Below are positions 3,236 to 24,944 of a stretch of 32,000 nt of DNA, one piece after another; the first letter of the stretch is position 1; every line of letters begins with the position of its first letter. The position numbers were made by a program, and so were the translations under genes. Under the pieces are notes generated by a model, which made no database searches, had not been told where the DNA came from, and saw only the letters and a program-made list of their open reading frames with translations. This DNA comes from Phytohabitans aurantiacus (lineage in GTDB: Bacteria > Actinomycetota > Actinomycetes > Mycobacteriales > Micromonosporaceae): the NCBI RefSeq assembly GCF_027923225.1, contig NZ_BSDI01000004.1:98116-130115 (forward strand), read 5' to 3'.

Positions 3236-4617
3236 CCCACATCCAATGCCAACAGGTCGTCCTCGGTCTCCCGCCGGACGATCACCCGAGCCCGCCCGTC
3301 GCGCACGGCGAGCACCGGTGGCCTGGGCACGTGGTTGTAGTTGCTGGCCATGCTCCGGCAATAGGCTCCCGTGCCGGGTACGGCAAGAAGATCTCCGGGC
3401 TGCACGTCGGCGGGCAGGAATTCATCCTTAACAACCACGTCCCCGGACTCGCAATGTTTTCCCACCACCCGAGCGAGGATCGGGCCGGCTTCCGACGTGC
3501 GGGACGCCACGGTCGCCGAGTACGACGCGTCGTAGAGCGCGGTGCGGATGTTGTCGCTCATGCCACCGTCGACGCTCACGTAGGTGCGGATGCCGTCGAC
3601 GTCCTTGACCGTGCCGACCTCGTAGAGCGTGAAGACAGCCGGACCGACGATCGCCCGGCCGGGCTCGATCGACAGGTGCGGCACCGCTAGCTGCAGCGCC
3701 TCACACTCGCCCTCGACGATCTTGGTGAGCCGCTTGGCCAGGTCAGCGGGGGGTGCCGGGTCGTCCTGCGTCGTGTACGCGATGCCGAAACCACCGCCGA
3801 GGTCGAGCTCGGGCAACTCGACGCCGCGCGCCTCGCGGATCTGGGCCTGTAGCCCGAGCACCCGCTTGGCCGATACCTCGAAGCCGCTGGTGTCGAAGAT
3901 CTGCGAGCCGATGTGGGAGTGCAGGCCGCGCAGGTCGAGCACGCCCTCGTCGATGATCTTCAGCGCCGCCTGGACCGCCGACCCGCCGGCGAGCGAGAAC
4001 CCGAACTTCTGGTCTTCGTGGGCGGTCGCGATGAACTCGTGCGTGTGCGCCTCGACACCGACCGTCACCCGGATGAGCACGCTCGGGCGCTTGCCGAACT
4101 CGCGCGCCAGCGCGGTCAGCCGGTCGATCTCGTGGAACGAGTCGACGATGATCCGTCCCACCCCGGCCTCGACCGCACGGGTGAGCTCGGCCACGGACTT
4201 GTTGTTGCCGTGGAAGCCGATCCGCTCGGGCGGCATGCCCGCGGACAGCGCCGTGGCCAGCTCCCCGCCGCTGCACACGTCGAGGTGCAGGCCCTCCTCG
4301 GCGATGATCCGGACGACGGCCCGGCACAGGAACGCCTTGCCCGCGTAGTACACGTCGCAGCCGTCGAACGCCGCCAGGAAGTCACGGCATCGGGCGCGCA
4401 TGTCACCCTCGTCGAGCACGTACGCCGGAGTACCGAACTCCTCCGCCAGGGCCCGGACGCTGAGGTCGCCGACGGCGAGCGCGCCGTCGGCGGCTCGCGC
4501 GACGCCGGTGGGCCACAGGTGCGGCACGAGGGCGTTGACGTCTTCAGGGGTACGCAGCCAGGCGGGCCCCCGGCTGCCAAGGTCGCCGTGCAGCGCCCCC
4601 GCTTCGTGCGCCCTCAT
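3232..4617 (-). CDS. lysA: diaminopimelate decarboxylase
   Basis: 461-aa ORF with the group IV PLP decarboxylase layout (YAGKAF PLP-Lys region, GGGFGIAY, CESGD). Its start ATG at 4617 directly abuts the argS TAG (4618-4620). Confidence 0.95.
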   Translation of the reverse strand: MRAHEAGALHGDLGSRGPAWLRTPEDVNALVPHLWPTGVARAADGALAVGDLSVRALAEEFGTPAYVLDEGDMRARCRDFLAAFDGCDVYYAGKAFLCRAVVRIIAEEGLHLDVCSGGELATALSAGMPPERIGFHGNNKSVAELTRAVEAGVGRIIVDSFHEIDRLTALAREFGKRPSVLIRVTVGVEAHTHEFIATAHEDQKFGFSLAGGSAVQAALKIIDEGVLDLRGLHSHIGSQIFDTSGFEVSAKRVLGLQAQIREARGVELPELDLGGGFGIAYTTQDDPAPPADLAKRLTKIVEGECEALQLAVPHLSIEPGRAIVGPAVFTLYEVGTVKDVDGIRTYVSVDGGMSDNIRTALYDASYSATVASRTSEAGPILARVVGKHCESGDVVVKDEFLPADVQPGDLLAVPGTGAYCRSMASNYNHVPRPPVLAVRDGRARVIVRRETEDDLLALDVG

Positions 4618-10343: not shown

Positions 10344-13300
10344 TCAGTGCAGCAGGTACGCGCGGAGCGTGGTCAGCGTGACCTCGTTACCGGCCTTGTC
10401 CTTCGCCACGGCTCGCAGCGACACGTGCTCGGCGCCGGCCGGATGGTTGACCGTCGTCTTCCACTTCGAGCCACCGCCTTTCACCGCCGCCGGGCTCCAC
10501 GTAGCACCGTCGTCGTAGGACACTTCGACGGTGAGGCTGGTGACACGGCTGGCATGGGAGCCGGCCTGGTGGCTGACTCGCACCGGAATGGTGAATCGTT
10601 CGCCCGCCGGTGCGCTGTACGCACCGTCCAGCGCTGGCGCGTAGTGCACCGTCATCAGGGGAAGAGGCGTCACCGCCTCCGCGGAGTGTGCGGAACGGAA
10701 CGACCATGAGCCGGACACCTTGGTGGATGTCGGGAAGACCCCGGTGCGGTCGAGTTCCGCCTCCAAACGGTACGCGGAATCCTCGCTGGGCAGCGTCGTC
10801 GAGAGAATGCCAGCTACGGGGGAGGTCGCGATGGGTTCCCCATTCCGATACAGGGTGGTCTGGCTCCGCTTCGCCGGGATCTTGCCGCCGATCCCGAACC
10901 GGCCGGGCACGGGGTCGACCATCATGCCGAAGTACGCGCTGAATTCGTCGTCGGCTGTCCGGGTCACGCCGACCGTCGACGCGCTACCGGCTGGGCGGTT
11001 GTAGAACGCCGGGCCGAAGACCGCCGTGTTCCAAATCTGTTGGTACGAACGCCCTGGCCGGTAGACGAGGTCCGATTGGGCGGCGAGGGTCACCGTCTTC
11101 GGAACGTCGATCGGGCCGATGTCGACCATGTCGCTGGACCAGTTCACGTTCGTGCCGGCGAAGTAGTCGATGCGGCGCGCGGGCAGCCGCATGCGGATGT
11201 TTGCGGAGAAGAACGCGTTGTCGGCCAGTGAGCCCATCGCACCGGCGGTGCCGGGCAGCCCGTGCATGTTCTGGTGTACGACGGCCAGGTCGCGGGGACG
11301 GACGTGGCGGGTGAGCCCGGTCGGGACTCCGCCGTCGATGCCGATTCCCACGTTGTACATGTACGGGCTGTCCCAGAAGGAACCGTTGCCGTCCGAACGG
11401 GCCCAGTGGGAAGCGACCAGAGACTTGAAGCCCGCCGAGGTGGCCGCGGGGCCGACCTGTCCGAGGAACAGCCTTTGGGTGCCCTCGTAGGGGAAGTAGT
11501 AATCGAGTCCGTCATCGCCGGGCGCCGTGTAGCTGGCGAGCGACAAGACCGGAGCGGCGCCGGGTTCGGGCACGGTGATGTCGACGGCGGCGGCGGTCCG
11601 GGCGTCGATAACGACCGTGGTGTCGGCCTTCAACCGGATCTGTGGCCGCGCCAGCAGCGAGATGGTTTCCTTCTCGGTGTCCGGGTCGGTCGCGATGAGG
11701 GCACCCACGCTGTAGTCGCCCGCGGGCACGCGCGTGGTGTATCCGTCCGGCGTCATCTGGTACGACACCTGTTCGCCGGTCCACGACGTGACGGCGCTGT
11801 TGTACGCCGTCGCGGTCGCGCCGTGCCGGTCGATCACCCGCACGGTGATGTCGTAGCTTTCCGCCTCGCGGAACACGGAGACCTGCGTCCGCACCGGGGT
11901 GGCACCCACCATCGCGGTGACCTGGCCCGTGTACCGGCCGTCCGGGGCGGCCACCGACGTGTCCACCGTGACGGTGACCGTGGCCGTGCCTCCCGCGGGG
12001 ATCGTCACGGTCGACGGCGACACCGTCAGCATCCCGGCCGGAGCGGCACCGCCGGGGCCGGTCATCGCTCCAGCCACGGTGGCCGAAATCGGTGTGGTAC
12101 CGGTGTTGCGGTAGGTCAGCACCTTGGCCATCGGTGCGTCGTCCTCGTGCGGCCACTCCGGCCGCCCCAGGTTGAGGCTGCCCTGATCCACGACCACGGA
12201 CGCGCTGACCAGAGCGGCCAGGTCTACCCGACCCGCGCCCTGCCCGTCGAGGGCGACCCCATCGAGCCACCGGGAGGTGCTCATCAAAGCGCCCTTGAGT
12301 TCCGAGCCGCTCCACTGTGGATATTTCTGGGCCAGAAGTGCCGCGGCGCCGGCGACGTGCGGTGTCGCCATCGACGTGCCGCTGCGCGCCATGTAGGGCC
12401 CGCTGCCCTCATCAGGCACCAGCGAGGAGCGGGCGGCCACGATGTCGGTACCGGGAGCCGCGATCTCGGGCTTGAGCCCGCCGTCACCCAGCCGGGGACC
12501 ACCGCTGGAGAAGTCCGCGATGGCGTCCTGACGATCGACCGCCGCGACCGAGAGTGCGGCGTCCGCTGTGGACGGTGACTGGACCGTGTGGGGACCGTCG
12601 TTGCCTGACGCGATCACGAAGAGCGTGCCGTACTGCGCGCTGAGCCGGTTGACCGTGTCTTCGACGATGTCGACGCCAGGACTGTCCGGCCCGCCGATGC
12701 TCACGTTTACCACCGAGGCGCCCTGCTCGGCCGCCCACTGCATGCCGGCGATCATCGCCGAGTCGGAGCACCACCTGTCGTCACACACCTTGCCGGCGAG
12801 GATCGTGGCTTCCGGCGCGATGCCCTTGTACCGCCCGCCGGAGGCAGCGCCGTTGCCCGCCATGGTGGACGCCACATGCGTGCCGTGCCCGATCACGTCG
12901 CCTGGCTCCGGCGACTCGGAGAAGTTCTCGCTGGCTCGAATACGACCGGCGAGATCGGGATGGCTCGCGTCGACGCCGGTGTCCAGTACCCCCACCACGA
13001 CGTCACGGCCGGTGAGGCCGGCTTCCCAGGCCGCTGGCGCGCCGATCTGTGCCGCGCTCTGGTCGAGCGCGATCTGCCTGACGCCATCCAGAAGGATCGA
13101 GCGGACGGCGCCCTGGTCGAGCCCGGAACGCAGCTCGGTCCACAGTGCACCGTTGTCGCCCTTGTCGGCGCGCACCGCGAGCGCGTTCACCACGGGGATC
13201 TCGCGAGTCACCGTGGCGCGCTTGTCCGCTAATTGGCGCAGGCTGGAGCGCTTCGCGCCTCCGGCGTGCTGGAGGATGAGCGGCGTCGTGTCGCGGTACC

Positions 13301-13610
13301 CGATCGCGAGCAGCCCGGTCACGTCGAACAGTCGCCGATCCACCCGACCCGCGGCCAGCAGTCCGAGCACATCGGATGGATAGATGTACTGGTGCCCGGC
13401 GCGCCGCTCGGCAGCGAACCCGATCCGGTCTCGCCCCTTGCCGGGCTCGACCGACACCACCTTGTCGCCGCTGAAACGCACGACGTCGCCGGTGACGAGG
13501 GTGACCGTGTCACCCGGTAGGGCGCCGCCCGGTTGTGCTGTGGCGGGCGCGGGACCAGAAAGGACCAGCGTCAGACTCGCCGACGCGGCGAGCCATCGAA
13601 ATGTTCTCAC
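10344..13610 (-). CDS. secreted S8 (subtilisin-like) serine peptidase with a very long C-terminal extension
   Basis: 1088 aa. It has a signal peptide (RTFRWLAASASLTLVLSGPAPATA-QP) and the catalytic triad motifs VGVLDTGVD (Asp), HGTHVASTMAG (His) and SGTSMATPHVAGAAALL (Ser). About 600 aa of beta-rich repeats lie C-terminal to the catalytic domain. The start is GTG at 13610 with no obvious RBS. Confidence 0.9.
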   Translation of the reverse strand: MRTFRWLAASASLTLVLSGPAPATAQPGGALPGDTVTLVTGDVVRFSGDKVVSVEPGKGRDRIGFAAERRAGHQYIYPSDVLGLLAAGRVDRRLFDVTGLLAIGYRDTTPLILQHAGGAKRSSLRQLADKRATVTREIPVVNALAVRADKGDNGALWTELRSGLDQGAVRSILLDGVRQIALDQSAAQIGAPAAWEAGLTGRDVVVGVLDTGVDASHPDLAGRIRASENFSESPEPGDVIGHGTHVASTMAGNGAASGGRYKGIAPEATILAGKVCDDRWCSDSAMIAGMQWAAEQGASVVNVSIGGPDSPGVDIVEDTVNRLSAQYGTLFVIASGNDGPHTVQSPSTADAALSVAAVDRQDAIADFSSGGPRLGDGGLKPEIAAPGTDIVAARSSLVPDEGSGPYMARSGTSMATPHVAGAAALLAQKYPQWSGSELKGALMSTSRWLDGVALDGQGAGRVDLAALVSASVVVDQGSLNLGRPEWPHEDDAPMAKVLTYRNTGTTPISATVAGAMTGPGGAAPAGMLTVSPSTVTIPAGGTATVTVTVDTSVAAPDGRYTGQVTAMVGATPVRTQVSVFREAESYDITVRVIDRHGATATAYNSAVTSWTGEQVSYQMTPDGYTTRVPAGDYSVGALIATDPDTEKETISLLARPQIRLKADTTVVIDARTAAAVDITVPEPGAAPVLSLASYTAPGDDGLDYYFPYEGTQRLFLGQVGPAATSAGFKSLVASHWARSDGNGSFWDSPYMYNVGIGIDGGVPTGLTRHVRPRDLAVVHQNMHGLPGTAGAMGSLADNAFFSANIRMRLPARRIDYFAGTNVNWSSDMVDIGPIDVPKTVTLAAQSDLVYRPGRSYQQIWNTAVFGPAFYNRPAGSASTVGVTRTADDEFSAYFGMMVDPVPGRFGIGGKIPAKRSQTTLYRNGEPIATSPVAGILSTTLPSEDSAYRLEAELDRTGVFPTSTKVSGSWSFRSAHSAEAVTPLPLMTVHYAPALDGAYSAPAGERFTIPVRVSHQAGSHASRVTSLTVEVSYDDGATWSPAAVKGGGSKWKTTVNHPAGAEHVSLRAVAKDKAGNEVTLTTLRAYLLH

Positions 13611-16778: not shown

Positions 16779-18518
16779 TCACGCGGAAGGCCGGTGCTCC
16801 CCGTGGAGTACCGGCCTTTCGCGCTGGCGGCGGGCGACCTCATCCGGGGTACCTTCCGCCGCCACGACGCCGTCGCGTAGCAGTACCACCCGGTCGGCAG
16901 ACCGCACCGTGGCCGGCCGGTGGCTGATGACAAGGAGCGCGCACACCCGCGACACCTCGCGGATGGTGCGGGTGAGTGCCACCTCGTTGACCGGGTCCAG
17001 ATGCGCCGTTGGCTCGTCGAGCAGCACGAGCGCCGGCCGGCCCAGCAGGCACCGCGCGATGGCCAGCCGCTGGCGTTCACCACCCGACAGCAGCCGCCCG
17101 TGCTCCCCGACCTCGGCATCCAAGCCGCGTGGGAGCCGCCTGACCAGATCGGTCAGGTTGGTCATCGCCAGTGCCCACCACAGGTCGTCATCGTCGGCCG
17201 CGGCACCGGAGTAGGTGAGGTTTTCGCGCACGGTACCGGCCAGGACCGTGCACTGCTGCTCGACAAGGCCGATGGCGCCGCGGTACTCGTCGTACGGAAC
17301 GTCGCGGGCGTCCCTGCCACGAAACAACACCTGCCCGCGATCCGGCTCGTAGAACCGCTCGATGACACTGAACACAGTGGACTTACCGGCTCCTGACGGC
17401 CCGATCAGCGACACGTGTCCACGCTCGGGCAGGCTCAGCGACAGTCCACGTAGGAGCGGTCGCGCGGGCTCGTAGCCGAACCACACGTCCCGCAGCTCCA
17501 GCAGATGCGGCGATCGGTTCTCCGGCACCGCCGCGGCCGCGCGGACGGTTACGGGTTCGCGCGGCAGTGCGAGCACCTCGTTGACCCGCTGCAGCGCGCC
17601 GGCACCCTGCTGCACGGCGGTGACCGCTTGAAAGATCGCCCCCACGGGCGTCGTCAGGTAGGTGAGGTACAGCATGAAGGCGACAAGTTCGCCGACCGTG
17701 CTGGCGCCACCGGCCACCCGCGCGCCACCTATCAGCAGGATGATCAGGTAGGACCCGGTGAGCGCCAGGTCGTTGACCGATCCGGCGCCGGCGTCCAGCC
17801 GCGCCATCCGCAGGCGGGCCGCACAGATCCGGCTCGCGTGCCTGAAGATCCGGCCGCTCTCCGCCGGCTCCGCACGGTTGGCGCGTACCGAACGGATGGC
17901 GGACAAGGCGCGCTCCAGGTCGGCCGTCAGTTCGCCATCCGCTCGCTGTGCGTCGGCGGACGCGAGCCGGATCCGCTCGACGACGGCCAGCAACACCGGC
18001 ACCGCCACGCCGATCAGCACGGCGACCACGACAAAGAGCGTCCAGTCCAGCCACAGCATCACCGCTACGAGGCCGGCCAGCCCGATGGTGCCCGACGCCG
18101 CGTTGGTGACGCTCTCCGCGATGAGCATGCGGATCGCGGCGGGATCGGTGGTGATTCGTGAGATCAGGTCACCACCGCGGTACCGGTCGTAGACAGCGAT
18201 CCGCAGCCGCAACACGTGATCGATCAGCGTCTGTCGCAGCTTGAGGGTCATGGCTTCGCTGGCCCGCGCCTGCGCGTACCGGGCCACCCCGAGCGCGACC
18301 GCCTGAAGGAGAAAAAGCACCACGAGCGCACCGACGGGACGGAAGGGAAAAGCGCCATCGGCGGTCGCGTCGACCGTGTGCCGTACCAGCAGCGGCTGCG
18401 CCAGCCCGGCGCCGGTCGCCGCGACGCCGAGCGCGACCGCCAGCGCGAGCCACCGGTAGTGGCCACTCAGCAGGCGCATCATGTCGCGCCAGCCGGCCCG
18501 GTCCAGCGCGCTGGTCAC
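16779..18518 (-). CDS. ABC transporter, fused permease/ATPase (lasso peptide exporter / immunity, D-type)
   Basis: The TMD has about 6 helices. The NBD carries Walker A GPSGAGKST, signature LSGGERQRLAIAR and Walker B LVLLDEPTAHLD. The start is uncertain: GTG at 18518 (2 nt after the B2 stop) or ATG at 18482. The track ORF start at 18671 overlaps the B2 gene and is unlikely. Confidence 0.85.
   Translation of the reverse strand: MTSALDRAGWRDMMRLLSGHYRWLALAVALGVAATGAGLAQPLLVRHTVDATADGAFPFRPVGALVVLFLLQAVALGVARYAQARASEAMTLKLRQTLIDHVLRLRIAVYDRYRGGDLISRITTDPAAIRMLIAESVTNAASGTIGLAGLVAVMLWLDWTLFVVVAVLIGVAVPVLLAVVERIRLASADAQRADGELTADLERALSAIRSVRANRAEPAESGRIFRHASRICAARLRMARLDAGAGSVNDLALTGSYLIILLIGGARVAGGASTVGELVAFMLYLTYLTTPVGAIFQAVTAVQQGAGALQRVNEVLALPREPVTVRAAAAVPENRSPHLLELRDVWFGYEPARPLLRGLSLSLPERGHVSLIGPSGAGKSTVFSVIERFYEPDRGQVLFRGRDARDVPYDEYRGAIGLVEQQCTVLAGTVRENLTYSGAAADDDDLWWALAMTNLTDLVRRLPRGLDAEVGEHGRLLSGGERQRLAIARCLLGRPALVLLDEPTAHLDPVNEVALTRTIREVSRVCALLVISHRPATVRSADRVVLLRDGVVAAEGTPDEVARRQRERPVLHGEHRPSA
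16787..16818 (+). terminator. strong hairpin just past the MFS stop, embedded in the 3' coding end of the convergent ABC gene
   Basis: AAGGCCGGTGCTCC-CCGT-GGAGTACCGGCCTT (14 pairs including one G-U) followed by TC GCG. The MFS stop codon (16773-16775) and the ABC stop codon (16779-16781) are only 3 bp apart. Confidence 0.35.
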
Positions 18519-18520
18519 CG

Positions 18521-18937
18521 CTAGGCCACCGTGAAGAAGGTGCGAAAGTAGTCGGCCGGAAACTCCTCCCCGACCGGCTCCCCGTCGACCTCCACCCAGG
18601 CGTGCGCCGAGAAGGGCGGCAGCCGCCTCGTGCCGACGCACCACGCCGCCCACGTCCCCCGTGCCCGGCACAGCAGCACCACCGCGAGCGATCGGGGCAG
18701 GCAGCCCTCGCGTGCGGCGCAGACGAGGCTCACCGCCATCACCGCCTGCCGGGCGTCGAGCACCTGCTCGCGGGTGGCGGGGCGGGCGCCCCGACGCAAG
18801 CGGGTCAGAAGCCGCCGGATCTGTCGGGGTGGACGCCGTGCCAGTACCCGAGCCGCCGTCACCGCCGCGTGCGCCGCAAGCCGCGTGGGCAGCGGAACCG
18901 ACCGGGGGTTGTGATAGATCGCTTCGGGCATGGACAT
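18521..18937 (-). CDS. lasso peptide biosynthesis B2 protein (transglutaminase-like leader peptidase)
   Basis: This is the last 138 codons of track ORF 18521-20314, starting at ATG 18937 (MSMPEAIYHNPRSVPL...). Cys-His-Asp catalytic context typical of lasso B proteases is present: REGCLPRSLAVVLLCRARG ... FSAHAWVEVDGEPV. Confidence 0.85.
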   Translation of the reverse strand: MSMPEAIYHNPRSVPLPTRLAAHAAVTAARVLARRPPRQIRRLLTRLRRGARPATREQVLDARQAVMAVSLVCAAREGCLPRSLAVVLLCRARGTWAAWCVGTRRLPPFSAHAWVEVDGEPVGEEFPADYFRTFFTVA

Positions 18938-18945
18938 GGCGGCGC

Positions 18946-19203
18946 CTACCGGTCCATCAGGCCGGCGGTGCACAGCTCCGTGACCAGATGGGTCACGTCC
19001 TGCTCCGCGCTGCCTCGATCGATGTCGTACTCCCGGCTGAGCGCCGTCGCGGCCGCGGCCGCGTCGCCGCCCTCCGCGATCGTGCGGACGACGACCGCAC
19101 CCGTCTCGTTGAGGGTAAAGAAGGCGCCGCTGTCCTCGTCCAGCAGAGCCGCACCGTACTCCGTCTCGGTGATCAGTACGCCGTTGCGCAGCTTCAACCC
19201 CAT
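18946..19203 (-). CDS. lasso peptide biosynthesis B1 protein (PqqD-like RiPP recognition element)
   Basis: 85 aa. It has a PqqD-like pattern (GAALLDEDSGAFFTLNETGAVVVRTIAEG...DVTHLVTELCTAGLM). RBS GAGGAGGAG overlaps the stop of the upstream cyclase gene. Confidence 0.85.
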   Translation of the reverse strand: MGLKLRNGVLITETEYGAALLDEDSGAFFTLNETGAVVVRTIAEGGDAAAAATALSREYDIDRGSAEQDVTHLVTELCTAGLMDR

Positions 19204-19212
19204 GACTCCTCC

Positions 19213-21066
19213 TCAGGACGCGAGAGCCGTCCGGTCGGTGACGCGTTCGATCGAGCGCAGCCAGACCTCGGCCGCGATCGTCTGGTGCAGCACCCCGATC
19301 TGCAGGTGCTTCGGCAAAGGGCGCGCGCACAGCTCGCGTACCGCCCGCGCGTCGATGAGGCCGAGCCGGGCCAGGGCCGAGTCGTCCCACAGAGCGAAGA
19401 GCGCGTCGCGGTGCACCCGCAACCCCATCTCCTCCTCGACCATCGCGTTGGCCTTCGTGGCGCGCAGCCGGCTGCTCTCCGGTACCACGCCGAGCATCGC
19501 CTCGCTGATCAGCGGCTTGTACCGCCACGGCGTCACCCGCTGCTCGGGCCGCACCGACAGCGCCGCCGTCACGACGGCGTCGTCGTAGTACGGCGCCGCG
19601 TACCGCACTCCGCGCTCGGCGGCGAGCTGCTGAAGCTGGCGGGTCATCCGGGACAGCAACCCGATGGCGGCGAGTTCGCGGTGCTGGCCGCGATGTGGGC
19701 TGAGCGGTGCCGCCCCGCCGATCTCGGCCCGGAGCAGCGTGCGCACGGCGTCGACGGCGTCGCGGGTGGTCCATGGCGGAAGTCGTGGCTCGCTGCCCCA
19801 GTCGAGCATGGGTTCGGTGATTGGCGGCGGCGCCATCGTCAGGTGCGCGTCGACACCGCGCAACCAGTCGCCGTACGAGTTCGTGGACGCGAGTTGCCGC
19901 AGCACCTGGCCGGCCGGCCACCGATATTTGGCGACGAACCCGCGAATCATCCGGCGCGCGAGAAGCGGTCGCCGGCGCGCGAGCGTGTGCAGGTACGCGG
20001 TGGAGCCGTGCAGAAGCTCGTCGCCGCCGATACCCGTGAGGTGCGCGCTCGATCCCCGGTCGGCGGCGCGCGTGACCACCGCGAGCCAGCGGTTCCGGTC
20101 GACGGTGGTGAAGCAGGGCTCGTCCCACAGGTCGGCCATCTCGTCGACACCGGCGTAGCTGAGCGGCATCTCCTCGCCGGGCACGACATGGTGCTCGATG
20201 CCGAGAGCGGCAACCGTACGGGTGGCCCATTCGACGTCGTCGGCCATGGCGTCGCGCACGTCGACGGTGAAGGCGAGCACCTCGGCGTCGGCGAGCCGCG
20301 CCGCGATCGCACACACCGCTGTGGAGTCGACGCCGCCAAGGTCACACGAGACGAGCCGCTGGCCGCGGGTGCGAACGCCGACCGCCTCGGTGAGGGCGGT
20401 GGCCAACTCCCGCGCACCGTCGGCGAGTGGCACGGTCGGGTCCGGCGGAGACCACCACCGCGCCGAGCGGACCACGCGGTCCTCGCGGATCTCGACATCG
20501 TGTCCGCCCGGAATCTCGGTCACGCCGCGCCACAACGGCTGGCCGGTGACCGGCGGCATGGTCTGCGGGTCCAGCAGGTGCGCCGCCACCCGTGCCGGAT
20601 CGAGATCGGCACCGGTCAGCGCGGCGACCACGTCGGCGCGGTCTGCGATGAGGGTCACCGGTCCCGCCGAACCGACGAAGACCCGGCGCAGTGCGCTCAC
20701 CGTGCCCCGGACGTACAGCTTCCCCCCGACCGAGCCGACCAGGTGATAGCTGCCTGGCCATCGCGGGCGGCCCGTGCCGCGCAGGTGATCGAGCCCGCCG
20801 TCCAGAGCCAGGCGGGCGGCGACCCGCTCGACATCTTCGCTGCGAGTGATGTGCTCACCAATGACAGCGAGGGCGGCCGTGCCGGCGGTGGCGACGGCAA
20901 TATCCCGGTCGGCCCATCGGCCAAGTATCCATGAACGCCCGGATGGGTGGCGGACACAACGAGTGGCGTACGGCTTGATTGATCTGGCGACGGGGTCCGC
21001 GTCCGCTTTATCGGGCAGGACAATGAACCAACTGGCAAGCAGGGAGAGATTCGCAATTGGCGGCAT
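19213..21066 (-). CDS. lasso peptide isopeptide bond-forming cyclase (asparagine synthetase B homologue, C protein)
   Basis: 617 aa. The N-terminus WFIVLPD is typical of lasso cyclases and there is no Cys2 glutaminase nucleophile. A PP-loop-like ATP pyrophosphatase motif SCDLGGVDSTAV is present. RBS GAGGAG lies upstream of ATG 21066. Confidence 0.9.
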   Translation of the reverse strand: MPPIANLSLLASWFIVLPDKADADPVARSIKPYATRCVRHPSGRSWILGRWADRDIAVATAGTAALAVIGEHITRSEDVERVAARLALDGGLDHLRGTGRPRWPGSYHLVGSVGGKLYVRGTVSALRRVFVGSAGPVTLIADRADVVAALTGADLDPARVAAHLLDPQTMPPVTGQPLWRGVTEIPGGHDVEIREDRVVRSARWWSPPDPTVPLADGARELATALTEAVGVRTRGQRLVSCDLGGVDSTAVCAIAARLADAEVLAFTVDVRDAMADDVEWATRTVAALGIEHHVVPGEEMPLSYAGVDEMADLWDEPCFTTVDRNRWLAVVTRAADRGSSAHLTGIGGDELLHGSTAYLHTLARRRPLLARRMIRGFVAKYRWPAGQVLRQLASTNSYGDWLRGVDAHLTMAPPPITEPMLDWGSEPRLPPWTTRDAVDAVRTLLRAEIGGAAPLSPHRGQHRELAAIGLLSRMTRQLQQLAAERGVRYAAPYYDDAVVTAALSVRPEQRVTPWRYKPLISEAMLGVVPESSRLRATKANAMVEEEMGLRVHRDALFALWDDSALARLGLIDARAVRELCARPLPKHLQIGVLHQTIAAEVWLRSIERVTDRTALAS

Positions 21067-21101
21067 TGACTCTCCTCAGTATCGAGCGGGCGAATGGGGA
21101 A

Positions 21102-21129
21102 CCGGGCGGGCAGCGACCTGCCCGCCCGG
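21102..21129 (-). promoter_or_regulatory. perfect 12-bp stem / 4-nt loop hairpin between the lasso precursor and cyclase genes (attenuator / transcript-stabilising element)
   Basis: CCGGGCGGGCAG-CGAC-CTGCCCGCCCGG. It starts 13 nt after the precursor stop codon and ends 36 nt before the cyclase ATG. No U-tract follows it on the minus strand. Confidence 0.55.
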
Positions 21130-21141
21130 CTCACCGGCGCA

Positions 21142-21252
21142 TCAGAGCAGCTGCTTGCCGCCCAGCAGGTCCTTCGGACCCCTGTTGCCGATCCCGGTCT
21201 CGGTGCGGAAGTCACCCTGCTTCGTGAGTGTGGGACGCTCGTACTTGCGCAT
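21142..21252 (-). CDS. lasso peptide precursor (A peptide), 36 aa
   Basis: ATG at 21252 is preceded by GGGAGGAG 8 nt upstream. The translation, verified codon by codon, is MRKYERPTLTKQGDFRTETGIGNRGPKDLLGGKQLL. The leader fits YxxPxLx3Gx5Tx exactly. The gene lies immediately upstream of C-B1-B2-D. The track ORF (89 aa, starting at 21411) includes a non-coding-looking N-terminal extension. Confidence 0.8.
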   Translation of the reverse strand: MRKYERPTLTKQGDFRTETGIGNRGPKDLLGGKQLL

Positions 21253-21478
21253 TTTGTGCTCCTCCCAGCAGTGGTTGATGAGACGGAAACGAATGCGCCG
21301 GGGATCAACCATCCGGCACCGAATCCCCTGCGGCACCAATGGATGTGCGCGTTTAAAATCCGTCCCCTGGAGACGGTAGGTGGGATACCCACGAACAACA
21401 ACCGCCATCAACCAGATTCACGGTTGTGGGTGAATTCGCCAACACCACTTGCGACATCGCTCAATCTATTGTTTTCGA

Positions 21479-21835
21479 TTAGAGCATCGAGACGAGGACC
21501 ACCGCCACAGCGGTCACGAAGGCGGCGGTGCCGTAGCAGGCAGCGGCGATCGCGGTGCCGTGCCGCTGAAGCTGGAGGCCGTCGCGAACCGTATGGCGCA
21601 GGCGGTGTGCGGCGTGCATGAGCCCGAGCCCACATAGGACGATCACGGCGAGCCGAGCCAGCGGGTTGCGCAGCAGCGTGTAGATCTCGGCACTGGACGG
21701 CGGATCGAGCCAACCCAGTGGAAACGCGATGCCGAAGAGGAACAGGAACACCGGCACCGCGAGCGCGGTCACCACTCCGCCGGCACTGAAGAGCAGCCAG
21801 AGGAAGGGCTCCGCGGAGGTGCGGTCGCGACTCAT
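21479..21835 (-). CDS. frdD: fumarate reductase membrane anchor subunit D
   Basis: 118 aa, [30 protein letters not shown]... This aligns by eye with E. coli FrdD ([21 protein letters not shown]...). It has three TM helices. Its ATG overlaps the frdC TGA (ATGA at 21832-21835). Confidence 0.8.
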   Translation of the reverse strand: MSRDRTSAEPFLWLLFSAGGVVTALAVPVFLFLFGIAFPLGWLDPPSSAEIYTLLRNPLARLAVIVLCGLGLMHAAHRLRHTVRDGLQLQRHGTAIAAACYGTAAFVTAVAVVLVSML

Positions 21836-22230
21836 GAGAGCACCAGCAACAGGATCACCGCCGAGACCGCGAACCACGCCACGTACAGCGCTCCGGCGAG
21901 GACCAGGCCGGGCACCCGGTGGCCACGCACCTTCAGCACCATGGCCTGCGGCGTCACCATGAACCAGGTGATCGTGTGCAGGACCGCCAGGGCGAGCGCC
22001 AGCGCGTTGATCGCGACCATCCACGGCCGGGCCGACCAGTCGAGGAAGCGCTCGTACTCGCCGGGACCGGCGCCGACCGCCCGCACCAGCAGGAGCAGGT
22101 AGACCACGAACCACACGACGGCGACGCTCGTCAGCTCACGCAACACGAACAGCAGGTAGGTGCGGCGAGAGGTCCACCAGAGAAGCGGAACCCGCTGCCT
22201 GTGCAGCCGCTGCCAGAGCCCCGTGGTCAT
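21832..22230 (-). CDS. frdC: fumarate reductase membrane anchor subunit C
   Basis: 132 aa, [41 protein letters not shown]... This resembles E. coli FrdC ([31 protein letters not shown] versus LHTITWF). There is an ATGA overlap with frdB at 22227-22230. Confidence 0.8.
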
Positions 22231-22976
22231 CGGACCCACCGGGGCAGCAGGAATGCCTTCACCGCCTCGTTCGCGGCGATGAGCTTGGCGCGCTGGATGG
22301 CGCCGGCCGGATCGACGCCCTTCGGACAGGCCCGGGTGCACTCCCCCACGAACGTGCATCCCCAGACGCCCTCGTCGTCCGACAGCACATCGAGGCGCTC
22401 CTCCTGGCCCTCGTCGCGAGAGTCCAGGTTGTACCGCTGGGCGAGGGCGATCGCGGCCGGGCCGATGAACTTCGAGTCCAGGCCGTAGACCGGGCACGCC
22501 GAATAGCACAGCATGCAGTTGATGCACATGCTGTATCGCTTGTAGTCGTCCATTTCGGACGGTGTCTGCAGCAGCTCCGTGTGCGGGTCGTCGTCGCTCT
22601 CGTCCCGGATGATCCATGGCTGCACGGCACCGAGCTTCTGCATGAAGTCGGTCATCTCGATGACCAGGTCGCGGATCACCGGGAAGTTGCGCAGCGGCTC
22701 GACGGTGATCGGTCCGGGCGCGTGGTCGACGAGGAACGTGCCGCAGCTCAGCTTCGGGTCGCCGTTCACCGTCATGCCGCAGCTGCCGCAGATACCCATC
22801 CGGCAGGACCAGCGGTACGACAGGGTCGGGTCGATCTCCTCCTTGACGTAGTTGAGCGCGTCGAGGACCGCCCAGTCGTCGCGCAGCGGCACGGCGTACT
22901 CCTGGAAGGTCGGCTCGGCCTCGGTCTCCGGCCGGTAGCGGAAGACGCGCAGCGTGATCTCCTTCAACGGCTTCAC
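22227..22976 (-). CDS. frdB: fumarate reductase / succinate dehydrogenase iron-sulfur subunit
   Basis: 249 aa with three Cys clusters: [15 protein letters not shown] (2Fe-2S), [12 protein letters not shown] and [12 protein letters not shown]. There is an ATGA overlap with frdA at 22973-22976. Confidence 0.93.
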
Positions 22977-24721
22977 CTCCCGTACACCCGCTCACCGGGC
23001 GGCCAACGGGTGACGGTGACCGGCTGGTACTCGATCCGGCAGCCGCCGTCGGCCTCGCGGTATGCCATCGAGTGCGCCAGGAACCGCACGTCGTCACGCG
23101 CCGGGAAGTCGGTGCGCTGATGCGCGCCGCGCGACTCCTCGCGGCGCAGCGCGCTGTGCACAATGGACTCGGCTATGTCGAGCATCGCCGCCAATTCGAG
23201 TGCCCCGACGAGCTGTGTGTTGAACGTCCGGCTGCGGTCGCCGACGCCCGCCACCGCGGCACGCTCCTGAAGCTCACGTAGCGTGTCGACGGCTTTGGCG
23301 AGCGTGTCGCTGTCGCGGTAGATGCCGGCCGCGCCCTCCAGGGTGTGCTGCATCGCGGTCCGGATCGCCGCGACGGACTCGCTGCCGTCGCTGGCCAGCA
23401 GCCTTTCCAGCCGGCGGGTCTCGTCGGCGGCCTGCGCGGTCACCGCGGCGCCGATCGGTGGTGCTTCCATCGCATACGCCGCCGCGGCGGCACCGGCCCG
23501 GGCGCCGAAGACGAGGATCTCCGGCAGCGAGTTGGAGCCGAGCCGGTTGGCGCCGTTGATGCTGACGCAGGCGGTCTCACCGGCGGCGAAGAGCCCATCC
23601 AGCGGCGCCGCCGCGAGCACGTCGGTGTGGACCCCACCCATCATGTAATGCACCACTGGGCGCACGGGCACCAGGTCACGCACCGGGTCGATGCGCTCGT
23701 AGTCGCGGCACAGCTCGCGCACCATGGGCAGCTTGGCTTCGATCTTCTCGGCCCCGAGGTGGCGCAGGTCAAGGTGCACCACCGGCCCGTACTGGGTGTC
23801 GATGGTCCGCCCCTTGGCGGCCTCGTGGACGAACGCCTGGGAGAGGCGGTCGCGCGGTCCCAGTTCCATGCTGCGCAGTACCGGCTCGGGTGTGGGCGTG
23901 CCCAGGTCGTAGTCCTGCAGGTACCGGTAGCCGTCCTTGTTGAGCAACCAGCCGCCCTCGGCGCGCGCCGCCTCGGTGATGAGGATGCCGGTGAACGGCA
24001 GGCCGGTGGGGTGGTACTGGACGAACTCCATGTCCTTCAGCGGCGCGCCGGCCCGATAGGCGAGCGCCATCCCGTCTCCGGTGCAGATGTTGGCGTTCGT
24101 GGTGAACGGAAAGACCCGCCCACCCCCGCCGGTGGCGAGCACAACGGCCTTGGCGGCGATCGTCTCGATCCGACCGGTCATCAGCTCGATCGCCACCACC
24201 CCGCAGACCCGCCCGTCGTCGACGAGCAGCCGGGTGGCGTACCACTCGTCGTACCGGGTCACCGGGCGGTACTTCAGGGACGTCTGGAACAGCGTGTGCA
24301 GCAGGTGGAAACCGGTCTTGTCAGCGGCGAACCACGTGCGCATCTTCTTCATGCCGCCGAACGCCCGAACGGCGACATGCCCGTCCGGCGTCCGGCTCCA
24401 CGGACAGCCCCAGTGCTCCAGGCGCAGCAGCTCGGCCCGGGCCTCGTGGACGAAAAGCTCCACCGCGTCCTGGTCGCACAGCCAGTCGCCGCCGGAGACC
24501 GTGTCGTACGCGTGCTCGTCGAAGCTGTCCTCGGCGGCGATGGCGGCCGCGGCCCCGCCCTCGGCGGACACGGTGTGGCTGCGCATCGGGTAGACCTTGC
24601 TGACCACGGCGACGGACAGCCTGGGGTCGGCCTCGGCCACCGCGATCGCGGCGCGCAGGCCGGCACCACCCCCGCCCACGATGACGACGTCGTGCGCTGA
24701 GGCAGCGTCAGGAGCCGTCAT
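22973..24721 (-). CDS. frdA: fumarate reductase (quinol) flavoprotein subunit
   Basis: It is strongly similar by eye to E. coli FrdA: [29 protein letters not shown] (FAD-histidyl site), [47 protein letters not shown]. The start is set at ATG 24721 ([19 protein letters not shown]). The alternative ATG at 24757 would add 12 aa. Confidence 0.92.
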
Positions 24722-24944
24722 GGAGCGAGCCGCACTCGTCGAGGATGACCCTTCCATCGTGGCGGACCGAACGCGTCTGCACGCTGCCGTCGTGGAACTC
24801 GTGCTTGATCATGCGGCAGCCGCAGGCGTAGTACTCGTCGGTGAAGACGAGCCCGTAGTCGTCCGAGTCCCGATAGTGGTCTCCCTCGACCATCCGGCCG
24901 CAGGGTGCGAGTTCACTCGTGAAGTGGATACGTTGACCAACCAT
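24708..24944 (-). CDS. small Cys/His/Asp-rich hypothetical protein (78 aa) overlapping the frdA start
   Basis: ATG at 24944 is preceded by AGGGAG 7 nt upstream. The product is [80 protein letters not shown]3 is high from this ATG onward but low in the 32 upstream codons of the track ORF (24945-25040). I recognise no family. Confidence 0.5.

Follow-up and report, generated by a model that had tools for sequence, protein, structure and literature searches.

Lagmysin is a lasso peptide whose mature sequence is given in a review table as LAGQGSPDLLGGHSLL (PMC12427821), and its N-terminal residue is leucine (PMC9867626). In the citrulassins, which have cores of the form LLxxxGNDRLxLSKN, Arg9 is invariant and defining (PMC12971885; PMC9266682) and is converted to citrulline by a distant PAD; the Leu1-Asp8 ring of these peptides is backed by MS/MS and NMR (PMC12971885). 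A cluster of Streptomyces rimosus has been reported by antiSMASH as 'lagmysin 80%', and in the engineering study of this species that entry names no detected compound, unlike the entries of other clusters (PMC13098539).

A short ORF of Phytohabitans aurantiacus was analysed together with its surroundings, where "the window" denotes the whole stretch of DNA that was analysed, 32,000 nucleotides in length. The ORF very probably encodes the precursor (A) of a lagmysin-type class II lasso peptide, which has no disulfide, and it forms part of a self-contained A-C-B1-B2-D cassette. The term "lagmysin-type" is a working definition taken from our alignment and not from a curated source: the leader has the pattern YERPTLTxxG[SD]Fxx(x)TG and is cut off behind this TG, and the core starts with an aliphatic residue, has Asp8 and an 8+8 layout and carries the pattern D-L-L-G-G-x-x-L-L. 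The sequences show the gene and its family, the full set of enzymes, the conservation of the cleavage register and the purifying selection on the core; the production, the threaded topology, the plug residues and the biological target of the peptide we only infer.

The precursor gene and its cassette

The features of the precursor gene and the cassette are listed below in the order in which they are read on the − strand.

21267..21333, − strand: conserved non-coding stretch 5' of the precursor gene, found by blastn
21259..21266, − strand: Shine-Dalgarno sequence GGGAGGAG, 6 nt 5' of the precursor ATG, read from the sequence
21142..21252, − strand: precursor gene A, 36 residues and a stop codon
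21252..21193, − strand: leader, residues 1-20 of the translation
21192..21145, − strand: core IGNRGPKDLLGGKQLL, 16 residues of the translation
21171..21169, − strand: codon GAC of Asp8 in the precursor core
21144..21142, − strand: stop codon of the precursor
21099..21132, − strand: GC-rich stem-loop in the A-C intergenic spacer, with a 15 bp stem and a 4 nt loop
19213..21066, − strand: predicted lasso cyclase C, an ATP-dependent macrolactam synthetase of 617 residues (Pfam Asn_synthase, E 3.5e-38)
18946..19203, − strand: B1, a PqqD-type leader-recognition chaperone (RRE) of 85 residues (Pfam PqqD, E 7e-15)
18521..18937, − strand: B2, a transglutaminase-like cysteine leader peptidase of 138 residues (Pfam Transglut_core3, E 6.1e-27)
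16779..18518, − strand: D, an ABC exporter of 579 residues in which permease and ATPase are fused, with a GTG start 2 nt past the B2 stop (Pfam ABC_membrane and ABC_tran)

The translation of the precursor gene is MRKYERPTLTKQGDFRTETGIGNRGPKDLLGGKQLL followed by a stop, as an earlier sequence-only reading had given it, and divides into the leader MRKYERPTLTKQGDFRTETG and the core IGNRGPKDLLGGKQLL (window 21252..21142, − strand). With the leader counted as 20 residues, Tyr-17, Pro-14, Leu-12, Gly-8 and Thr-2 are all present where that reading had placed them, so that the precursor carries both the penultimate Thr and the YxxPxL recognition motif looked for in the leader of a lasso cluster. Asp8 is the sole acidic residue of the core, again as had been read, and lies within positions 7-9, where the acceptor is sought; the resulting layout is an 8-residue ring, IGNRGPKD, and an 8-residue loop and tail, LLGGKQLL. 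Since the precursor is matched by Pfam DUF5972 (42 bits, E 6.9e-11, residues 1-28) and by NCBIfam lasso_leader_L3 (21.4 bits, cut-off 19), the predicted gene is judged to be no chance ORF despite the 70% GC of the genome. Homologues of 36 residues hold the equivalent position in the homologous loci L004-L007 and L009. The block GAGAGGAGCA is kept at the Shine-Dalgarno site in the alignment of the closest homologous loci, and AAAGGTGCA is found there in L007.

The cyclase C starts 75 nt past the precursor stop, and all four genes of the enzyme set, namely C, the split B1 RRE and B2, and the exporter D, adjoin the precursor and are co-directional with it, as is looked for in a lasso cluster. The top NCBIfam match of C is the albusnodin/ikarugamycin-family macrolactam cyclase (244 bits), which is under the cut-off of 300, and the specific cyclase models of NCBIfam score C under their curated cut-offs, while the Pfam match and the gene context are clear. 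The identity of C is 74% to Phytohabitans houttuyneae, 72% to KLBMP 9797 and 57% to Catenuloplanes atrovinosus. The best of these matches suggest a host of Micromonosporaceae type, whereas lagmysin comes from a Streptomyces. B1 scores 98.3 bits against NCBIfam lasso_PqqD_Strm (cut-off 70), and B2 scores 116.8 bits against NCBIfam lasso_biosyn_B2 (cut-off 33); in an alignment of 7-8 homologues, Cys79 (GCLxRS) and His112 (AHAWV) of B2 are invariant. The 579-residue gene call of D was taken from L001, a Logan contig of run DRR350998 that is 100% identical in DNA to the window over 12.1 kb, and D is kept 3' of B2 in L004-L007 and L009.

The order A-C-B1-B2-D is repeated in Catenuloplanes indicus, C. 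atrovinosus, Phytohabitans houttuyneae, KLBMP 9797 and a soil metagenome contig, where the homologous cassettes sit among wholly different neighbour genes. Because the five-gene order is constant while the flanks differ, the predicted cassette is regarded as a conserved functional unit. Extra tailoring of the product was considered and ruled out: the window has no PAD, methyltransferase, kinase or acetyltransferase gene, and each homologous locus has other flanking genes. As no tailoring enzyme is present, no further modification of the peptide is expected.

The genes on either side of the cassette have housekeeping functions or are unrelated to it. Directly upstream of the cassette lies a frdABCD-type fumarate reductase operon (21479-24757, − strand), consisting of the flavoprotein, the Fe-S subunit and the C and D membrane anchors. 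It is missing from the flanks of the homologous cassettes and is therefore probably unrelated to the lasso cassette. The downstream flank holds an MFS transporter, a TetR gene and a siderophore-interacting protein, and then, ~3 kb past the cassette, an S8 subtilase of 1088 residues with Fn3-like and Ig-like C-terminal domains (10344-13610, − strand), which is not kept beside the homologous cassettes.

The blastn matches of the conserved non-coding stretch reach window positions 21328-21333 at 84-86% identity in L003, L005 and L006. The conservation spans about 70-80 nt, whereas the cyclase genes of these loci are only ~77-80% identical, and the alignment shows the shared blocks GGGGATTCGGTG and GATGGTTxATCCCC. 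The stretch probably comprises the promoter and the 5' UTR or, put more broadly, may hold a promoter, an operator or a 5' UTR element. A sigma-70 consensus scan upstream of the precursor gave no promoter, such a scan being uninformative for a high-GC actinomycete.

At the other end of the gene, the 91 nt around the stem-loop (21060-21150) have an MFE of −46.5 kcal/mol and a z-score of −2.9, and not one of 200 shuffled sequences folds equally well. L004, L005, L006 and L007 each carry a similar hairpin, CCGGGCGG...CCGCCCGG, 3' of the precursor gene, in which both the stem and the loop differ in sequence. There is no U-tract 3' of the stem-loop, and the terminator scan made no call there. The stem-loop would act as an attenuator or an mRNA stabiliser that leaves the precursor transcript more abundant than the enzyme transcript, and it may set the ratio of the two.

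By homology with established lasso biosynthesis (PMC9266682), B1 would bind the leader through the YxxPxL motif, and B2, a Cys/His peptidase, would cleave after Thr19-Gly20. C would adenylate the side chain of Asp8 and couple it to the alpha-amine of Ile1 around the pre-threaded tail, and this ring closure would give a product with the IGNRGPKD ring and the LLGGKQLL loop and tail, which D would export.

Conservation of the core and the question of threading

A word-seeded protein search, in which the query was the precursor with 4 upstream codons, gave five near-identical precursors. Searching 1.84 billion representative proteins with a profile gave 48 matches, and a genome scan with the precursor-family alignment gave 80 loci with organism names. 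The 98 non-redundant precursors from the profile search and the genome scan were aligned with MAFFT, with the YExP anchor as the only imposed motif.

The identical core IGNRGPKDLLGGKQLL is found in Catenuloplanes atrovinosus and in metagenomic contigs with divergent leaders (P0004, P0005). The cores of Phytohabitans (IGAHGPKD...), KLBMP 9797 (LGSRGPKD...) and C. indicus (IGNKGPKD...) differ from this one by one or two residues. Between the window and C. atrovinosus, the core codons show 4 synonymous and 0 non-synonymous differences, whereas the leaders show five non-synonymous changes and the cyclases are 57% identical; in L003, an identical precursor lies beside a cyclase gene that is only 77% identical in DNA. 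The core is thus unchanged while the cyclases and leaders diverge, which amounts to strong purifying selection on the predicted mature peptide. Such selection would imply that the peptide is made and has a specific role.

In the family alignment, position 13 is Lys, His or Arg in 90 of the 98 precursors and position 14 is Gln in 61, and the tail follows the pattern [KHR]13-Q14-x-[LFIV]16. A 16-residue core with the 8+8 layout is found in 46 of the 57 tabulated precursors. The conservation of positions 13-16 suggests a structural or functional constraint, and the conserved tail and the fixed 8+8 geometry fit a threaded structure, without proving it. The steric plugs are probably to be sought among Lys13, Gln14, Leu15 and Leu16.

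The same tail bears on a different outcome, in which the cluster is intact and gives no stable lasso, being either silent or the source of a product that unthreads to a branched-cyclic form, with Lys, Gln and Leu as weak plugs for an 8-membered ring. The tail LLGGKQLL offers neither an aromatic nor any other very bulky residue as a plug, so that it is uncertain how well the threaded state would withstand heat, and some engineered lassos are sensitive to carboxypeptidase even unheated (bioRxiv 10.1101/2020.11.25.399105). Because the S. rimosus study gives no compound for the related cluster, 'lagmysin 80%' (PMC13098539), such lagmysin-like clusters may be silent in the laboratory. However, an unstable product does not sit well with the 8+8 layout and the strong conservation of tail positions 13-16, or with a core that is identical across genera despite cyclases of 57% identity, and we consider this outcome unlikely. 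The tail of citrulassin A, which also has no aromatics, is reportedly threaded as judged by NMR, which speaks against it as well.

Close variants of the core are also found in Streptomyces. Among the 80 genome loci, 27 (L011-L037) are Streptomyces with cores of the type [IVL]K[ND]xGPKD[VIL]LGGKQLL, such as [IVL]KNTGPKD[VI]LGGKQLL, and S. rimosus NRRL WC-3904 is one of them (L032, precursor at 3501-3599). The precursor with the KNT core is very common in this genus and apparently uncharacterised, and in genome papers it goes by 'lagmysin-like' alone. These clusters share with the window GPKD at ring positions 5-8, a near-identical xLGGKQLL tail, the layout and the leader family, and Ile1 is common in them. 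They differ at ring positions 2-4, which read KNT there and GNR here, in the cyclase, which is ~51% identical, and at position 9, which is Val or Ile in most and Leu in one (L028), whereas it is Leu here.

No open-access paper was found on the core, its sub-motifs or the GPKD/KQLL subgroup, and published RODEO precursor lists may hold such predicted cores; the sole sub-motif with a literature match was DLLGGHSLL, in the review table that lists lagmysin (PMC12427821). As a tentative reading of the alignments, the peptides with a GPKD ring and an LGGKQLL tail might form a widespread, strongly conserved and uncharacterised lasso subfamily, in which the conservation of the core across cyclases of ~50-57% identity would reflect a specific conserved target. 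This reading takes in the Ile1 peptide of the window, the identical Catenuloplanes core and the 27 fetched Streptomyces loci.

The cyclase search gave 355 matches with E <= 1e-30, and more than 100 of the 120 listed matches are metagenome proteins ~51-56% identical to C of the window, mostly from JGI and ENA assemblies (P0013-P0125). Precursors from uncultured Actinomycetota MAGs and from the profile search have cores such as LGGSGPRDxxxxHQxL (P0132-P0170; L038, L040-L042, L052, L066, L071). These precursors and metagenome cyclases seem to belong to a large family of environmental lasso peptides, none of them characterised.

The predicted cleavage site and ring

The leaders of the aligned precursors end in Thr-2 and Gly-1 without exception (98 of 98 for each residue). 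The first core residue is almost always hydrophobic: the six commonest are Leu (57), Ile (23), Met (6), Val (5), Phe (3) and Cys (1), among which Gly does not appear, and Ile is the second most frequent residue 1 of the DUF5972 family. The sequence-only reading had called an Ile1-Asp8 core unusual; within this family, it is typical. Residue 8 is Asp in 81 of the 98 precursors, which, together with the hydrophobic residue 1, supports the 8-membered Ile1-Asp8 macrolactam predicted at the outset.

The survey also recovered the locus of the lagmysin producer, Streptomyces sp. NRRL S-118 (L045; MIBiG BGC0001645), where the precursor encodes a leader ending in QKVTG and then LAGQGSPDLLGGHSLL, the same sequence as that of mature lagmysin. 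The mature peptide of this homologue starts after the same TG, and the listed MW of lagmysin, 1516, fits the dehydrated Leu-start form (computed 1515.8 monoisotopic, 1516.7 average). Cleavage after Gly20, which had been proposed from the leader motif, and the predicted Ile1-Asp8 macrolactam are well supported, since Thr-2 and Gly-1 are invariant, L045 displays the lagmysin register and the citrulassins have a Leu1-Asp8 ring. The computed monoisotopic masses are 1659.978 Da for the Ile1 lasso form and 1677.989 Da for the linear core, and the predicted product has a net charge of about +2 (from Arg4, Lys7 and Lys13, offset by the C-terminal carboxylate).

Lasso peptides classically begin with Gly, and 9-membered rings closed at Asp are common among them. 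Both points would favour cleavage after Thr19, which would give the core GIGNRGPKDLLGGKQLL with a 9-membered Gly1-Asp9 ring and a computed mass of 1717.000 Da, in agreement with the 1717.0 Da calculated by hand in the earlier reading, and the invariance of Gly20 in the family is equally what one would expect of a first core residue. However, the invariant Thr would then be shifted from its conserved position −2 to −1, at odds with the penultimate-Thr rule (PMC7327761). The lagmysin precursor has the same TG, and the published peptide begins at the Leu past the Gly, with a listed MW that is that of the dehydrated Leu-start form; citrulassin N also has a Leu1-Asp8 ring supported by MS/MS (PMC12971885). 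Cleavage after Thr19 is considered very improbable, and the register with Ile1 as the first core residue is retained.

In a sub-branch of the family (L073, L077, L078, L080-L084, L086, L088, L089), the leader (...SFRKTG) is shorter by one residue and the cores are of the type LGTNRGPE[RK]xxxLRFSL, where a basic residue comes after Glu8. This Glu is likely to be the acceptor in the sub-branch.

Significance and comparison with known lasso peptides

If it is expressed, the peptide would be a cationic, Ile1-initiated addition to the few characterised lasso peptides with a first residue other than Gly, and it would test Lys, Gln and Leu as locks for an 8-membered ring. Provided that the subfamily reading is true, it would then, to our knowledge, be the first lasso peptide to be characterised with an isopeptide at Ile1, and it might possibly offer a new cationic bioactivity. 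The GPKD...LGGKQLL core, which is unusually well conserved in Micromonosporaceae-like strains and in many Streptomyces, is a sensible orphan to express and to screen for bioactivity. The concept of lasso biosynthesis is unchanged by the cluster in the window, and the main yield of the survey is the recognition of a widespread, highly conserved and uncharacterised GPKD/KQLL subgroup.

The sequence-only reading had treated a bulky aliphatic first residue, an Asp8 ring and TG at the leader end as the hallmark of the citrulassin group and had proposed an alignment with cores of that type. These features are present in the window precursor, as are the broad leader family and the 8-membered ring closed at Asp8 that citrulassins also have, and citrulassin-like precursors do occur within the DUF5972 leader family (P0171, with ...SAKTG followed by FLGSHGNDRLILEKN); however, they are family-wide in DUF5972, lagmysin included, and not specific to citrulassins. 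Membership of that group, as a Leu1/Asp8-type lasso related to LLxxxGNDRLxLSKN but devoid of the citrullination site, was rejected because Arg9 is absent, and it is given hardly any credence: residue 9 is Leu instead of the defining Arg (PMC12971885; PMC9266682), which also makes Arg9-type citrullination impossible, as had been foreseen; the core has 16 residues instead of 15 and the tail DLLGGKQLL instead of DRLxLSKN; the window has no PAD gene; and the core is identical to citrulassin A (LLGLAGNDRLVLSKN) at only 2 of 15 positions (Asp8 and Leu10).

In an ungapped alignment, the core is identical to lagmysin at 8 of 16 positions (Gly5, Asp8, Leu9, Leu10, Gly11, Gly12, Leu15 and Leu16), and the core is thus lagmysin-like rather than citrulassin-like. 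By these comparisons, the closest characterised peptide to the predicted product is lagmysin. The precursor of the window shows every feature of the lagmysin-type leader and core as defined above, both in the 98-precursor alignment and in IGNRGPKDLLGGKQLL set against LAGQGSPDLLGGHSLL. The two systems share the leader family YERPTLTKxGDFxxxTG and the cleavage point after TG, and their cores have in common an aliphatic residue 1, the Asp8 acceptor, a length of 16 residues, the 8+8 layout and the tail DLLGGxxLL. The difference at residue 1, Ile here and Leu in lagmysin, is conservative. The rings differ more, since IGNRGPKD is net cationic through Arg4 and Lys7, whereas LAGQGSPD of lagmysin is neutral, and positions 13-14 of the tail are Lys-Gln here and His-Ser in lagmysin.

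The order A, C, B1 and B2 is the same at the lagmysin locus, although L045 stops short of a comparable D gene. In tblastn, the identity to the enzymes of L045 is 47% over 606 residues for C (E 2e-156), 43% for B1 and 57% for B2, which indicates that the predicted biosynthetic enzymes are homologous to those of the lagmysin cluster, though substantially diverged. As judged from the sequences, the peptide of the window is an uncharacterised lagmysin-type relative, and its predicted enzymes, its gene order and the logic of its leader are those of canonical lasso biosynthesis.
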